A stretch of 10,306 nucleotides of DNA from a virus (taxonomy: Monodnaviria > Loebvirae > Hofneiviricota > Faserviricetes > Tubulavirales > Inoviridae). The position numbers were made by a program, and so were the translations under genes. The notes below the pieces were generated by a model. It did not search any database. It had not been told where the DNA came from and saw nothing but the letters and a program-made list of their open reading frames with translations. The stretch lies in the IMG/VR virus record IMGVR_UViG_2541047900_000001; one strand, 5' to 3'. Position 1 is the first letter of the stretch, and every line of letters starts with the position of its first letter. Of this stretch, positions 6,087-10,306 are shown in pieces.

Positions 6087-7139
6087 TTAATGCCAGTTAC
6101 TGGCATGTGAAATACGGTTATAATCGAAAATTAAACCTTTCTCATAAACCCATGATGGAATTTTGGCTGGTTTGGCTTCAAGAGTACGAACCAACGGAAC
6201 AACGTTATTAGAATCCGGTGACTCACAATAAAAGTTAATATCTATTCCGAAAGAAAGTAATTCTTTACGGTGTCGGTAGAATGTAGGTTTCGGTAACATC
6301 TCTTTCATGTTCGCGCCCTGCTTCCACAATAAATATGTAGACTGTATTTTTCTTGGGAGATTAATTATTTTTTCATCAGTTAATATAGTATTTTGATTCA
6401 TTTCTATTCTCCCTACATAGTCAGAGAATAATTTATTGGGCGTCTCAATATTCCAGCTATTACCAAGCGTAAGATTCAAATCAATTAATTCAGTTGTTCT
6501 TAATGTTAATTCAATGCGTAATTTATCTTTTGACCAGTCCAGTAAACCAGCTTTAACGAATTCGTCTGCCATCTGGTGCCCTTTTTTGCCAGATGTATGC
6601 TCATCATATTTTGAATAAAATTTCAGGCTCCAACGACGGGAGTTTTTCCCTAAGTAAACAGTGCCACCTTTACCACAGGCGCGACCGTGGCGAGTTTTAG
6701 CTTTAAATTCTGCGGCATATAACCATGCGCGGACATTTTCTAATGTTGACAATGAATACATGTAATTGATATCGATGCGCGAGATCTTAAATTGCCCTTC
6801 CATGACCTGCCGATAGGATGGTAGATCATGAGGAATATGCAGTAATGCCAATATTCTGGCGTAAGCTGTTAACACCAACCCTTGCAAATCGTCGGAACCG
6901 ATAACAGAGTGACCTTGCAAAAACTTTGATGGATTACCGTCAATGTAGAGATGTGTTGCCCGACCTTCACCATCAGATCCAACAGACCTTACTTTCATTG
7001 TGGACTCATGCGAACCGCGAACGGTCAACCGTTTTACTGTTTCCCACTCCACTGCACCGTCAGCATCGACGCTGACGACACTACCAGCCGGTAACGGTCG
7101 GTGTGTGCAAGGCAGGATTCCGGTAAACCAGTCGATCAT
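6087..7139 (-). CDS. Rolling-circle replication initiation protein (gene II / RstA-like)
   Basis: 350 aa; first gene of the minus-strand module, divergent from the HTH repressor as rstA is from rstR in CTX-phi. Size and position typical of inovirus replication initiators. Confidence 0.8.
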   Translation of the reverse strand: MIDWFTGILPCTHRPLPAGSVVSVDADGAVEWETVKRLTVRGSHESTMKVRSVGSDGEGRATHLYIDGNPSKFLQGHSVIGSDDLQGLVLTAYARILALLHIPHDLPSYRQVMEGQFKISRIDINYMYSLSTLENVRAWLYAAEFKAKTRHGRACGKGGTVYLGKNSRRWSLKFYSKYDEHTSGKKGHQMADEFVKAGLLDWSKDKLRIELTLRTTELIDLNLTLGNSWNIETPNKLFSDYVGRIEMNQNTILTDEKIINLPRKIQSTYLLWKQGANMKEMLPKPTFYRHRKELLSFGIDINFYCESPDSNNVVPLVRTLEAKPAKIPSWVYEKGLIFDYNRISHASNWH

Positions 7140-7277
7140 AAGTAGTCACACCCATCAAAATATGTGTCAATAGTCATTTGTGAGCAGATTGAATGGTCAC
7201 AATGTAATATGCTCAGATCTGACAGTCAATACATTTGCAATGTTTAAATTGTCAAAAATGAGCATCAAATCTAACTA
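7140..7277. promoter_or_regulatory. Divergent control region between replication gene and repressor (copy 1); probable promoters, operators and possibly the origin
   Basis: 138-bp AT-rich spacer between divergent genes. Contains a perfect 10-bp palindrome TCAGATCTGA (7213..7222), an inverted repeat TGTGA...TCACA (7180..7200) and three TGTCAA-like motifs (7165-7171, 7224-7230, 7250-7256). Exact -35/-10 elements could not be assigned. Confidence 0.55.
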
Positions 7278-7712
7278 TTGATGAAGTTATGGCGGACAAA
7301 CAGAGAGCAGAACGGTATCAAAAAGGTAATTCTGGAACACTCGACTTATGAAGAACTGGCCGAGAAGACTGGCATTAGCGTGAGTACGCTGGTCAGGATA
7401 GCGTCCGGCAAAACTGAACCTAAATTCAGTGACATCATTCAGATAGCTAAAATTACGGGTGCAGACTTAAACACCTTAGCTTATGGCTATGCTCTTGATG
7501 TTAAAGAAGAAGCTACCGAGCGGAAGCTAATCACTTCTGCGGATGGATATACTGATGAAGAAACCACTAACGCACATAATTTCATCGTGTGGAACATCAG
7601 GACACTGGAAAAACAAGATATTCTGGCACTCGCAAGGCAGGTTTCTGCCTTAAGTTCATACACTTACAGTACTAAAATGTTTATGAAAAAAGCGGTGTCT
7701 GGAGAAGAGTAA
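7278..7712 (+). CDS. HTH (XRE/Cro-C1-type) repressor, copy 1 with altered 5' end; possibly non-functional
   Basis: 144 aa, identical to copy 2 from IKKVILEH onward. Lacks the 46-bp segment carrying copy 2's Shine-Dalgarno and start, begins at TTG/ATG without a recognisable ribosome-binding site, and an extra G changes the first ~12 residues. Confidence 0.45.
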   Translation: MMKLWRTNREQNGIKKVILEHSTYEELAEKTGISVSTLVRIASGKTEPKFSDIIQIAKITGADLNTLAYGYALDVKEEATERKLITSADGYTDEETTNAHNFIVWNIRTLEKQDILALARQVSALSSYTYSTKMFMKKAVSGEE

Positions 7713-7726
7713 AAGGATTAACAGTC

Positions 7727-7879
7727 TCAGGAATGAGACAAACGTGCAGTATTACCGCGAACGGTCAACCGTTTTACTGTTTCCCACTCCACTGCACCGT
7801 CAGCATCGACGCTGACGACACTACCAGCCGGTAACGGTCGGTGTGTGCAAGGCAGGATTCCGGTAAACCAGTCGATCAT
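7727..7879 (-). pseudogene. Truncated duplicate of the replication gene 5' end (42 native codons plus 8 out-of-frame codons)
   Basis: 7754..7879 matches 7014..7139 (rep codons 1-42); reading continues into the reverse complement of the repressor copy 1 3' region and stops after 8 codons. Confidence 0.8.
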
Positions 7880-8050
7880 AAGTAGTCACACCCATCAAAA
7901 TATGTGTCAATAGTCATTTGTGAGCAGATTGAATGGTCACAATGTAATATGCTCAGATCTGACAGTCAATACATTTGCAATGTTTAAATTGTCAAAAATG
8001 AGCATCAAATCTAACTATTGAAAAACCACTGTTAAGATGGAGCCAAGTAG
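7880..8050. promoter_or_regulatory. Divergent control region, copy 2, with extra 46-bp segment providing the repressor ribosome-binding site and start
   Basis: Same motifs as copy 1 (palindrome TCAGATCTGA at 7953..7962), plus 8021..8066 containing GGAG about 9 nt upstream of the ATG at 8051. Confidence 0.55.
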
Positions 8051-8497
8051 ATGGGCAACAATGAGCATGAAGTTATGGCGGACAAACAGAGAGCAGAACG
8101 TATCAAAAAGGTAATTCTGGAACACTCGACTTATGAAGAACTGGCCGAGAAGACTGGCATTAGCGTGAGTACGCTGGTCAGGATAGCGTCCGGCAAAACT
8201 GAACCTAAATTCAGTGACATCATTCAGATAGCTAAAATTACGGGTGCAGACTTAAACACCTTAGCTTATGGCTATGCTCTTGATGTTAAAGAAGAAGCTA
8301 CCGAGCGGAAGCTAATCACTTCTGCGGATGGATATACTGATGAAGAAACCACTAACGCACATAATTTCATCGTGTGGAACATCAGGACACTGGAAAAACA
8401 AGATATTCTGGCACTCGCAAGGCAGGTTTCTGCCTTAAGTTCATACACTTACAGTACTAAAATGTTTATGAAAAAAGCGGTGTCTGGAGAAGAGTAA
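8051..8497 (+). CDS. HTH (XRE/Cro-C1-type) transcriptional repressor, intact copy
   Basis: 148 aa; helix-turn-helix segment STYEELAEKTGISVSTLVRIASGKTEPKFSDIIQIAKITGADL matches the XRE pattern; GGAG Shine-Dalgarno; divergent from the replication gene as rstR is in CTX-phi. Confidence 0.85.
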   Translation: MGNNEHEVMADKQRAERIKKVILEHSTYEELAEKTGISVSTLVRIASGKTEPKFSDIIQIAKITGADLNTLAYGYALDVKEEATERKLITSADGYTDEETTNAHNFIVWNIRTLEKQDILALARQVSALSSYTYSTKMFMKKAVSGEE

Positions 8498-8525
8498 AAG
8501 GATTAACAGTCTCAGGAATGAGACA

Positions 8526-8554
8526 AACGTGCAGTATTACCAACACTGCACGTT
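8526..8554 (+). terminator. Putative rho-independent terminator of the repressor gene
   Basis: Perfect 10-bp inverted repeat AACGTGCAGT (8526-8535) / ACTGCACGTT (8545-8554), 9-nt loop, then CTTTATTGTG. Only the left half is present after copy 1 (7741-7750). Confidence 0.6.
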
Positions 8555-8593
8555 CTTTATTGTGCGAATTTTGAACAATGAAAAAGGATCAAA

Positions 8594-9016
8594 ATGATGA
8601 GTAGAAATAACGAAACAAGCGGCGTTGAATTGGTTGTCGTGGGCGTATTTGCTTTCTGTCTGGCAGTTGTTGCCTGGTTAATGAAAACTTTCGATGTTGA
8701 ATGGCAAACAGCACTGGAAACTGCGCCTGGCCTGATAGTCTGGTTGCTTGTTGTCGGTGCGGGGATCTTTTTCGGGATCAAAATGGAAACAGGTCTTGTT
8801 CGCTGGGGTGCCCCACTGGCGATCGCCCTTCTGATTCCGGTATTCAAACCAATTCTTAAGGAAGCTGCCGGAGTACGTGAAATGGGTGGGTTGGTTTTCG
8901 ATGATATGGTTTCGTGGTACGGAACTGGCTGGGGAATGTCTCTGATGTTTTTTGGAATTCTTATCGTCGGATACGGTCTGCTTTATTGGTGGCACCGAAG
9001 AAATTCATATTATTGA
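8594..9016 (+). CDS. Small integral membrane protein (about 4 predicted transmembrane helices), function unknown
   Basis: 140 aa; AGGA Shine-Dalgarno 5 nt upstream of the ATG; four hydrophobic segments (VVVGVFAFCLAVVAWLM, LIVWLLVVGAGIFFGI, APLAIALLIPVF, MSLMFFGILIVGYGLLYWW). Antisense ORFs 8557..8847 and 8678..8995 judged to be shadows. Confidence 0.7.
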   Translation: MMSRNNETSGVELVVVGVFAFCLAVVAWLMKTFDVEWQTALETAPGLIVWLLVVGAGIFFGIKMETGLVRWGAPLAIALLIPVFKPILKEAAGVREMGGLVFDDMVSWYGTGWGMSLMFFGILIVGYGLLYWWHRRNSYY

Positions 9017-9018
9017 TA

Positions 9019-9049
9019 TAATATTACCCTAGGTTAACTAGGGTAATAT
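9019..9049. promoter_or_regulatory. Near-perfect 31-bp palindrome (13-bp arms, 5-nt spacer): terminator or protein-binding site
   Basis: AATATTACCCTAG (9019-9031), GTTAA, CTAGGGTAATATT (9037-9049); lies 3 nt after the stop of the membrane-protein gene, at the transition into AT-rich DNA. Confidence 0.55.
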
Positions 9050-9117
9050 TCAAATACTAAATTTTTACATTTTATCTGACCATCTTTGATCAGTTAAAAC
9101 ACTGGATTTTAAGTAAA

Positions 9118-10221
9118 ATGAGAAAAAAGATGCCGGACTTGATTACTGATACATTGAAAGTAGTTACTTCTTTTTTTGTGGCATTAGTCCTCAATAAGTT
9201 TTTATCTATATTTAGGAAAAGACAACTTTACTTATCCTGTTGGAACTCCTTGAGTAAAACCTCAATATCTGACAATGCAATAGTAATAAATGCATCAGTA
9301 TTTAATAAAGGTAAGGATAAAGAAAAAAATGTAGAAATAAAAGTCCCAAACGGTATGTCTTGTACTGTAATTGCAAGTGATCATGATGCAACTACCGAAG
9401 GTTCTTTTGTGAAGATAGATAGAATATTAGCAAATAAAAAAATATCCATGGTGCTCTTGATTGAAGGAACAAGAGTTCTTGATAAAAGTACCATGCCTTC
9501 CATAAGATCAGAAGATACTGACGGGAAAACATACCTTTCAAAAGACTCAGTGCCACCGAGTGCAGGTTCTTTTATTTTAGGCGGTGCTATTTTTGCTGCA
9601 TTTTTCAGTTATATGGTCATCAGTATCCAAACAGAAGACAACCCTCTCGCGGGCCCATTGAAAGCATATAACTACATGATTTATAACAATATGTACAATT
9701 CTGGACTTTCGATTAATCCTATAGGTAATGGACTGATAACTGAAAATTACAATCTAAGAGCGAATGAATACCCTATTGAAATAATAGATGCCAAGATAGA
9801 AAAAAATCAAATAATGTTCAAATTTAGAATAATTAATAAAACATCAGAAGCACTGAAAGTTTCAGGCGGATGGAGAATATATAAAAACTTTCAATATATT
9901 TCCGAACATGTTGATACATTTGATTATAAAGATGAAAAGAAAAGAGAAGAAGAAGAAATAAGGGTGTATAAGAAATACAATGTGGAATTTGTTAATGATA
10001 ATGGATATCTTATGGAAAAACCGAAAGAAAGGGTTGAAGTTCCTGCAAATTCAGTTGGCTATATTATAATAAACAGAAAATACTCTCCAAGCATTACTTA
10101 TAATGACCTAAACATCGAGTTTAACTTTAGTGGTGGTTCAGGTGAAATATACCAAGAAGCAGATATGCTTTTTACAGCTAAGAATTCTAATATAAGCAGT
10201 ACTATATTAGACAAGAAATAA
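9118..10221 (+). CDS. AT-rich hypothetical membrane protein with two predicted transmembrane helices and large Lys/Asn/Ile/Tyr-rich domains; function unknown
   Basis: 367 aa uninterrupted ORF in visibly AT-rich DNA, unlike the rest of the window. Hydrophobic helices near the N-terminus (VVTSFFVALVLNKFLSIF) and mid-protein (FILGGAIFAAFFSYMVISI). Weak Shine-Dalgarno; a second in-frame ATG 4 codons downstream is an alternative start. Confidence 0.7.
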   Translation: MRKKMPDLITDTLKVVTSFFVALVLNKFLSIFRKRQLYLSCWNSLSKTSISDNAIVINASVFNKGKDKEKNVEIKVPNGMSCTVIASDHDATTEGSFVKIDRILANKKISMVLLIEGTRVLDKSTMPSIRSEDTDGKTYLSKDSVPPSAGSFILGGAIFAAFFSYMVISIQTEDNPLAGPLKAYNYMIYNNMYNSGLSINPIGNGLITENYNLRANEYPIEIIDAKIEKNQIMFKFRIINKTSEALKVSGGWRIYKNFQYISEHVDTFDYKDEKKREEEEIRVYKKYNVEFVNDNGYLMEKPKERVEVPANSVGYIIINRKYSPSITYNDLNIEFNFSGGSGEIYQEADMLFTAKNSNISSTILDKK

Positions 10222-10227
10222 TTAATT

Positions 10228-10254
10228 GGTTCGCACAATGACGTTATGCTAAAG
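10228..10254 (+). other. Degenerate dif-like sequence (candidate Xer recombination site) with a 5-bp central region
   Basis: GGTTCGCACAA TGACG TTATGCTAAAG versus dif GGTGCGCATAA TGTATA TTATGTTAAAT: 9/11 matches in each arm, central region one base short. Orientation is inverted relative to the dif fragment at 1-14. Confidence 0.4.
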
Positions 10255-10290
10255 AGGCCGCTGCGGAGGCCATTTTCGCAGCGGCCTTTT
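10255..10290 (+). terminator. Putative rho-independent terminator downstream of the AT-rich gene
   Basis: GC-rich inverted repeat AGGCCGCTGCG (10255-10265) / CGCAGCGGCCT (10277-10287) followed by TTT; flanked by a further inverted pair CGTTATG / CATAACG. Confidence 0.55.
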
Positions 10291-10306
10291 CAACATAACG
10301 AGTCGC

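Follow-up and report, generated by a model that had tools for sequence, protein, structure and literature searches.

An attP-adjacent cargo slot in a CUS-phi/Ypf-phi-type filamentous prophage and a candidate inner-membrane anti-phage gene within it

We analysed a 10,306-nucleotide stretch of DNA assigned to the Inoviridae (IMG/VR record IMGVR_UViG_2541047900_000001, the whole of which is referred to here as the window), which is a filamentous prophage of the type of CUS-phi and Ypf-phi, a group of Xer-dependent phages (PMC4266046), and integrates at dif. The strand that does not hold the genes for replication and morphogenesis carries, in this order, a repressor, a small gene that we call orf140, one variable cassette and the phage attachment site attP, and it is the gene filling the variable cassette, orf367, that is the subject of this work. 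Our analysis of its sequence and of the loci of its relatives indicates that orf367 is horizontally exchanged cargo in the variable slot beside attP and that it encodes a predicted membrane protein of an uncharacterised family. As to its role, we put at about an even chance the possibility, suggested by association, that the protein works on its own in the inner membrane of the lysogen against phages or other mobile elements, either by exclusion or by abortive infection.

The replaceable slot between orf140 and attP

The cassette of the window spans positions 9019..10220 (1,202 bp, 31% guanine-cytosine (GC) content), its limits being given by the breakpoints of homology with other variants of the phage. 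Homology to other Escherichia coli prophages ends at 9018, 2 nt past the stop codon of orf140, and returns at 10219-10225, at the stop codon of orf367. In an inventory of 35 loci, drawn from genomes of E. coli, from other genera and from contigs of IMG/VR, the slot holds at least 14 unrelated cassettes of 0.7-1.2 kb each, all of them AT-rich (31-37% GC), and in two IMG/VR contigs of the same phage family (L037 and L038, position ~4422) it is empty, the orf140 stop codon being followed by the 4 bp GCCT and then by the attP arm. The slot therefore has the properties of a hotspot for hypervariable cargo, in that unrelated genes interchange between bounds of conserved phage sequence and recognised defence genes are found among its other occupants. 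These include an STM4504-family protein with AbiJ_NTD4 (9e-27) and DUF7014 domains and a match to the PADLOC candidate PDC-S32, a 264-aa protein with a DpnII/MboI-type restriction endonuclease (REase) domain (7e-59; PADLOC Aga_Helical-REase, 1e-34) and a 368-aa protein with a CAP12/Pycsar TIR effector domain (2e-19); the remaining cassettes gave no informative match. A first-pass annotation, made from the letters of the window without database searches, had expected defence functions to be common beside the repressor, and the AbiJ, REase and TIR cassettes agree with that expectation. Of the cassettes counted across 5,426 complete E. coli genomes the most frequent is a Zn-ribbon (ECs_2282) cassette with 28 genomes, followed by the REase cassette, which also encodes a DUF6953 protein (24), the STM4504 cassette (18), the orf367 cassette (17), the UTI89-type cassette (10) and the TIR cassette (a single genome).

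The neighbour orf140, by comparison, is retained beside every cassette type and also where the slot is empty, and it is present in 128 of the same 5,426 genomes. Since it is kept throughout while the cassette is swapped, orf140 is a fixed part of the repressor-side module, and orf367 is cargo that can be replaced. Both nevertheless travel with the phage: in strain TUM14759 the same genes, orf140 and orf367 included, are found on a 9,565-bp circular record (L005, NZ_CP128883.1, labelled as an untypable plasmid), which is the complete circular filamentous phage genome, presumably the replicative form assembled alongside the integrated copies. Because both genes are part of this circular record, they belong to the phage genome and not to the host flank.

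With 31.7% GC (26.4% at third codon positions) orf367 is, as the first-pass annotation had observed, far more AT-rich than the phage core genes at 37-47%. From this a recent horizontal acquisition had been proposed; horizontal exchange is supported by the comparison of variants, but AT-richness is no sign of recent arrival because all cassettes of the slot lie at 31-37% GC and members of the orf367 family lie 8-21 points below their surroundings, including those in Pseudomonas. The earlier suggestion of a mobile unit at 9019..10254 likewise needs trimming: the segment is present or absent as a unit, and its limits are 9019-10220, the dif-like sequence being part of the conserved flank.

Both of the elements between which the gene had been described as bracketed are real, and they differ in kind. 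The 31-bp palindrome at 9020..9050 (13-nt arms at 9020-9032 and 9038-9050 around a 5-nt loop, fully complementary) lies at the 5' end of the cassette and is confined to loci with the orf367 cassette, other cassettes opening with unrelated sequence and some of them with small hairpins of their own. We accordingly rejected the idea that cassettes share it as a site of recombination or as a boundary; it could act as an operator or form a hairpin in the RNA. On the right, the 86 bp past the orf367 stop codon are about 94% conserved in all cassette variants, and the flank at 10225..10306 comprises one arm and the apical stem of an attP forked hairpin. It contains a dif-like sequence (10228-10254) made up of a XerC-like arm (10228-10238) and a XerD-like arm (10244-10254), together with the inverted repeat of the hairpin stem (10242-10300), a structure cut by the end of the window. 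On the packaged strand of the circular form (L005:245-400(-)) the complete forked hairpin has a predicted energy of -33.1 kcal/mol (z = -5.3), and none of 200 shuffled sequences was as stable. One of its arms, GGTGCGCATAA...TTATGTTGAAA, combines a XerC arm that matches E. coli perfectly with a XerD arm that does so almost perfectly. Window positions 10228-10254 form the other, GGTTCGCACAA...TTATGCTAAAG. The right flank is therefore predicted to be an attachment site of the CTX-phi type, in which two inverted dif-like sites are brought together in a forked hairpin.

No Xer-like site was found at the left boundary of the cassette, and a comparison of cassette starts revealed no site common to them there. 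As there is no shared site at the left boundary, the simplest mechanism is exchange through homologous flanks, and the cassette is exchanged in one piece, most probably by homologous recombination in the conserved sequence on either side, between co-resident or tandem phages.

Some further observations concern the slot and the attP arm. The cassettes of L014, L040 and L030 have a common layout, in which the gene for a small soluble protein of 89-101 aa comes first and that for a protein of 216-262 aa, C-terminally a multi-helix membrane region, comes second, and represent another uncharacterised two-gene cargo type of the slot. The 155-aa cargo of L034 shares an NKGK..KNV motif with orf367 and was considered as a miniature relative, which we rejected at an hhalign probability of 13%. 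The 71-bp attP arm (window 10227-10297) matches 462 places on E. coli plasmids, mostly large ones from avian and human isolates. On the only plasmid examined for the arm (L047, plasmid A, NZ_CP010232.1) it lies directly 3' of an STM4504/AbiJ-like gene and beside insertion sequence remnants, and a cargo-plus-attP unit of the phage has therefore moved onto plasmids. The AbiJ-like gene of this plasmid is a different allele from the chromosomal one, and megablast with the chromosomal STM4504 cassette found no plasmid copy.

The orf367 protein, its family and its genomic contexts

The two open reading frames (ORFs) reported by the first-pass annotation, 8594-9016 (140 aa) and 9118-10221 (367 aa), exist as described, with the second methionine favoured as the start in each. 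Conservation among homologues for the former and pN against pS for the latter (values below) mark both as genuine genes rather than chance ORFs. For orf367 the RefSeq annotation and the alignment of homologues favour a start at 9130, giving a plus-strand gene at 9130..10221 (363 aa) within the longest ORF of 9118-10221, and a match to phrog_17621 (7.5e-212) covers residues 5-367. Hydropathy and an AlphaFold2 model (mean predicted local distance difference test (pLDDT) score 85) agree on the two transmembrane helices noted earlier, and all that follows on topology and structure is predicted. The first helix (9157..9210) carries the conserved polar residues N22 and S26 and leads into an invariant juxtamembrane motif, FRxRQLY. 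It is followed by a conserved beta-sandwich domain (9226..9534; strands at 33-135 in the model) with invariant NKGKDKEK, IDR and KSED..GK loops, by the second transmembrane helix (9562..9630) and by a fast-evolving, cysteine-free C-terminal alpha/beta domain (9649..10212). In all 27 members analysed, more of the lysine and arginine residues next to the helices lie towards the conserved domain, and by the positive-inside rule this excess makes the conserved domain cytoplasmic and the variable one periplasmic. The order of helix, beta-sandwich, helix and C-terminal domain is common to the phrog_17621 family, the alignment of which (A1) has 20 invariant columns, and mean pairwise identity in the family is 48% for the N-terminal domain and 23% for the C-terminal domain.

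In comparison with an allele of 76% identity, the proportion of nonsynonymous differences (pN) is 0.05-0.18 against a saturated proportion of synonymous differences (pS) of 0.78, with pN at 0.176 in the C-terminal and 0.110 in the N-terminal domain (Jukes-Cantor-corrected dN 0.20 and 0.12). We give pN and pS because the saturation of synonymous sites does not allow dN/dS to be computed for each domain. These values indicate that orf367 is under purifying selection.

Database searches returned little for the protein. There was no Pfam or NCBIfam match; PADLOC-DB 2.0.0 (2023) gave no hit to orf140 or orf367 at E <= 1, nor to the UTI89 allele at E <= 0.01; profile searches against PDB sequences found nothing; and in Foldseek comparisons with viral structures the query TM-score did not exceed 0.23, with no specific fold match. 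The first-pass annotation had recognised no family for either protein, which is borne out for Pfam, NCBIfam and PADLOC, although both proteins fall into PHROG families, neither of them with an assigned function. In 50,697 deposited phage genomes searched with megablast and tblastn neither orf140 nor orf367 had a match, and since deposited phage genomes lack them the PHROG matches probably derive from prophage sequences. Our literature search found no paper naming the protein accessions or the PHROG identifiers. The name puvA was considered for orf367 and rejected, as it is given to a receptor-binding virion protein (PMC4266046).

A word-indexed search identified 35 clusters of orf367 homologues with 25-76% identity from Enterobacterales and Pseudomonas, all lacking Pfam domains, and an exhaustive profile search of 1.84 billion representative sequences returned only 206 proteins at E <= 1e-3, 38 of them close. 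A second tier of matches consists of proteins of 300-330 aa sharing the first two thirds, and the ten remote or longer members that were inspected showed no added Pfam domain.

The homologues are always single genes without a conserved neighbour, and many of them lie beside Xer sites. In the classic CUS-1 prophage of the O18:K1:H7 lineage (UTI89, NU14) the same slot holds a full-length homologue of 369 aa with the same motifs (29% identity, E = 4e-44), and in Providencia and Morganella the homologue is the last gene before the attP hairpin of inoviruses with Phage_GPA and Rep_trans replication proteins, so that relatives of orf367 abut attP in three other inovirus lineages. The same attP arm directly follows the gene in L048, which carries the 76% allele, and in L006, an Enterobacter conjugative plasmid; seven Enterobacter plasmids carry the gene. 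For L048 a plain chromosomal context was rejected, the attP arm pointing to a remnant of an Xer-dependent element. Proteus and Serratia have the gene within 1 kb of the canonical chromosomal dif site, which has 1 and 0 mismatches to E. coli dif respectively. The Serratia locus (L009, 9055-12680) has, beside the perfect dif, the orf367 homologue, an attP-like arm at 11148, a Shedu SduA gene (PADLOC, 7e-109) and a further attP arm at 12654, with no phage structural genes nearby, and is an array of either remnants or small Xer-borne modules. Elsewhere the gene is found between the PADLOC candidates PDC-S06 (3e-160) and PDC-S31 (4e-40), in Pseudomonas with a toxin-antitoxin module on either side (HicAB and an MqsA-like one), next to smpB where a P2/HP1-like prophage ends, or alone between housekeeping genes.

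Possible roles of orf367

An anti-phage protein of this kind would be made by the lysogen and would sit in the inner membrane, its variable periplasmic domain meeting components of an incoming phage or of a DNA-entry machine. The cytoplasmic beta-sandwich and the two helices could then block the entry of DNA, which would be superinfection exclusion, or could damage the membrane so that the infected cell dies, as in abortive infection, and we prefer neither. Defence or exclusion is our best guess because the slot is rich in defence-type genes, and relatives of orf367 in other contexts also have defence genes around them. In common with superinfection-exclusion proteins, orf367 is encoded by a prophage, being part of the circular phage genome, and has the two predicted transmembrane helices of an inner-membrane protein. 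It is also transcribed, together with the repressor, in the direction opposite to the virion genes. In phages of the CTX-phi type such an orientation fits expression in the lysogen.

A number of points weigh against this role. orf367 shows no homology to a characterised defence, exclusion or toxin protein, and both of its beta-sandwich domains are generic and bear no catalytic or pore-forming signature. The enrichment argument rests on three to four cassette types, because most cassettes are functionally unassigned, the matching to defence families relied on a PADLOC-DB release of 2023, and the 13 contexts of the family are those that could be retrieved and not a random sample. A scan upstream of the gene found no convincing promoter. 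Finally, effects on host fitness during infection have been reported for CUS-phi and Ypf-phi (PMC4266046), and a role directed at the host is therefore possible as well.

The alternative that follows from these effects is a lysogenic-conversion or fitness factor, an envelope protein whose periplasmic domain alters envelope properties, stress tolerance or host interaction and which would contribute to the modest in vivo effects reported for the two phages. CUS-1 of the O18:K1:H7 lineage does carry a family member in the slot, no causal gene for the prophage fitness effects has been identified among the accessory ORFs (PMC4266046), and the attP-adjacent cargo of CTX-phi includes toxin genes (PMC4266046 and passages of PMC12715192). 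We nevertheless think it unlikely, as Pseudomonas, plant-associated Enterobacterales and environmental metagenomes have members of the family as well, those other cassettes of the slot that could be identified encode nucleases, Abi or TIR proteins rather than virulence factors, and the protein has no secretion signal for export past the inner membrane. Distinctly unlikely, in our judgement, is a function linked to dif itself, by which orf367 would help Xer-dependent elements to compete, for instance through exclusion of rival filamentous phages or other Xer-exploiting elements or through stabilised integration. The phage integrates without orf367, since the slot can be empty or hold nucleases, and no Xer-like site was found near the gene in two Pseudomonas loci, a P2-like prophage and a plasmid-like defence island; set against this, an Xer link exists in 9 of the 13 contexts, a XerC-like attP arm adjoins the stop codon of the gene in the window, UTI89, L048, L006, L008, L043 and L009, and a canonical dif lies within 1 kb of the gene in L007 and L009. 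Keeping out rival inoviruses would itself count as one version of the anti-phage role.

The first-pass annotation had treated orf140 and orf367 as a membrane-protein pair, and a two-gene membrane system or a toxin-antitoxin pair would be in keeping with two adjacent membrane protein genes on the same strand. This is contradicted by the comparison of sequences, and we consider it very improbable: orf140 persists beside at least 14 different cassettes and beside the empty slot, it is found in 128 E. coli genomes as against 17 for orf367, and homologues of orf367 in Providencia, Morganella, Serratia and Pseudomonas and on plasmids have no orf140 beside them. A type II toxin-antitoxin pair in particular was rejected, as the two genes are inherited independently and the homologues have no conserved neighbour. 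That orf367 is a decaying or non-functional AT-rich ORF is hardly credible. It is AT-rich, lacks recognised domains and a clear promoter, but 363 codons are open in DNA of 31% GC, full-length homologues with invariant motifs extend down to 25% identity, pN is far below pS and the fold prediction is confident, all of which contradict such a reading.

Returning to the anti-phage role, it is possible, although we suggest it only tentatively, that orf367 represents a new single-gene family of inner-membrane defence against phages or other mobile elements in which the periplasmic domain confers specificity, the cytoplasmic beta-sandwich and helices act as effector, and gene and attP arm travel mainly as one unit. 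If true, this unit would travel among Xer-exploiting filamentous phages, chromosomal dif regions and plasmids.

The carrier phage and comparable variable regions

The minus strand of the window encodes a secretin, a Zot-type assembly ATPase, a pIII-like protein, a coat protein, a single-strand DNA-binding protein and a gene-II-type replication protein (Phage_CRI, 1e-73). Divergent from these genes is an RstR-like helix-turn-helix repressor of 148 aa (8051..8497, plus strand; Pfam HTH_3, 1.6e-9; phrog_3557, transcriptional regulator, 4e-74), which marks the start of the repressor-side or lysogeny module and confirms the setting of a filamentous prophage with its repressor that had been recognised from the sequence. 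Positions 8500-10306 are 100% identical to E. coli SCU-101, where the prophage is in tandem arrangement and adjoins hipBA, the location of dif. Between the repressor and orf140, at 8526..8554, there is a terminator-like hairpin with a T-rich tract on the plus strand (inverted repeat I3, 13-nt arms, 92% complementary); the repressor terminator of the first-pass annotation is thus present as a structure, although a consensus terminator scan did not flag it.

orf140 occupies 8594..9016 on the plus strand (140 aa; phrog_4174, 1e-84), with a likely start at the second methionine, 8597 (139 aa), according to the RefSeq annotation and the homologue alignment. It encodes a predicted inner-membrane protein, for which hydropathy and the AlphaFold2 model both give the four helices proposed before, the model being of low confidence (pLDDT 65). 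Its GC content is 46.8%. It has no Pfam, NCBIfam or PADLOC match and no Foldseek hit among viral structures at E <= 0.001. Homologues form 49 clusters, all from Enterobacterales, at 63-99% identity, with a mean column identity of 84% across genera (alignment A2). The gene is also present in UP-phi-type phages, whose structural genes and regulator differ, and a relative of 38% identity lies at the same position in a more distant inovirus. These features suggest a phage function expressed together with the repressor, possibly a role in immunity to related phages.

Two sequences related to orf140 require comment. L013, a contig in a metagenome-assembled genome of Candidatus Nanosynbacter, carries orf140 at 99% identity and the E. 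coli-type Zn-ribbon cassette, and is almost certainly an enterobacterial contig misplaced in its bin. P0069, a predicted protein of 166 aa in which the first half of orf140 (93% identity) runs into a DpnII-MboI domain, is probably a frameshift or an assembly join over the boundary between orf140 and the cassette.

Within the phage itself there is a partial internal duplication at 7014-8497, in which 7014-7281 equals 7754-8021 and 7315-7614 equals 8100-8399, giving a second repressor copy with a different N-terminus (7278-7712) and, at 7727-7879, 50 aa of the replication protein as a fragment; it has the appearance of recombination between tandem prophage copies. In SCU-101 the Zot gene is annotated as longer (L001 6260-7396, 378 aa), the secretin gene is not annotated and hipA beside the prophage is truncated (L001 13863-14183), which points to deletions in and beside the tandem prophage. 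Past the secretin, two small minus-strand ORFs at 155-403 and 549-797 are conserved in all E. coli variants examined; the former matches an 82-aa hypothetical protein (WP_001399975) and the latter overlaps the position of a 65-aa protein (WP_001298440). Their counterparts in Ypf-phi are YPO2280a/YPO2281, at the phage's other accessory end.

The region had been put forward as the best candidate for an undescribed system, which does not hold entirely, since both genes have PHROG families and variable accessory regions at this position have been noted before in CUS-phi, Ypf-phi and UP-phi, without a function being given (PMC4266046, PMC7307601). The accessory ORFs in question are orf1 and orf1a of CUS-phi and YPO2271 and YPO2272 of Ypf-phi, and both differ between Ypf-phi and CUS-1 (PMC4266046). 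In a tandem array of UP-phi the copies share the first extra ORF and differ in those after it (PMC7307601), in agreement with the fixed orf140 and variable cassette described here. These phages belong to the same group and carry, at the same position past the repressor and beside the attachment site, ORFs that differ among near-identical phages. What our analysis adds to these papers is the exact limits of the cassette, an inventory of at least 14 types with empty slots, the defence-type identity of several occupants and the recurrent arrangement of gene plus attP arm, as well as the recognition, from sequence comparison, that the CUS-1 accessory ORF and orf367 are members of one widespread family.

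Comparable regions are known from other elements. Passages of PMC12715192 propose phage defence for genes in the hypervariable regions of Vibrio dif-integrating inoviruses and of double jelly-roll phages. The Vibrio inoviruses described there are likewise Xer-dependent and have a repressor, attP and a variable region of 1-2 kb, with ctxAB of CTX-phi beside attP, but they belong to another host order and phage lineage and have other terminal genes, xafT is absent here, and orf140 is specific to enterobacterial phages; the same passages make no mention of the orf367 family. In the defence hotspots of P2-like phages and P4-like satellites the systems have been found experimentally to be protective (PMC9122126). 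As in the present slot, conserved phage genes there flank alternative, AT-rich and mostly single- or two-gene contents, although those hotspots are in tailed phages with integrases and their protection has been shown, whereas defence is a candidate role for the present slot. The pdif modules of Acinetobacter plasmids, reportedly described by Blackwell and Hall in 2017, are said to be small cargo units bounded by XerC/XerD-type sites and found in different replicons. The two successive units of gene and attP arm beside dif in Serratia, and those on Enterobacter and E. coli plasmids, resemble such modules, the succession of dif, gene and attP-like arm in Serratia being suggestive only; in the window, unlike in pdif modules, the cassette has an Xer-like site on its right side only (10228-10254). 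With regard to the protein, HK97 gp15, P22 SieA, T4 Imm, RexB and Cap15 of the cyclic-oligonucleotide-based anti-phage signalling system (CBASS) are membrane-anchored single proteins of small to medium size without an enzymatic domain that act at the inner membrane. orf367 is similar in being a prophage-encoded, membrane-anchored single protein and has no sequence or specific fold similarity to any of them, and to our knowledge its architecture of helix, beta-sandwich, helix and alpha/beta domain does not occur among those exclusion and abortive-infection proteins.

If orf367 does not protect, it would be ordinary phage cargo in a variable region that had been noticed before. If it does protect, it would constitute a defence family with an architecture unlike those described, and a simple rule for finding further systems would follow, namely to search between orf140 and attP in prophages of the CUS-phi/UP-phi type, which are carried, often in tandem, by about 2% of complete E. 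coli genomes. It would also provide the accessory ORFs of prophages associated with E. coli K1 and with pandemic Yersinia pestis, so far unexplained, with a concrete candidate. The units of gene and attP arm beside dif and on plasmids raise the question of whether Xer sites move small cargo among Enterobacterales in the manner of pdif modules, and, should the proposed single-gene defence family prove true, the attP-adjacent slot of enterobacterial inoviruses would be an unexplored reservoir of defence genes.

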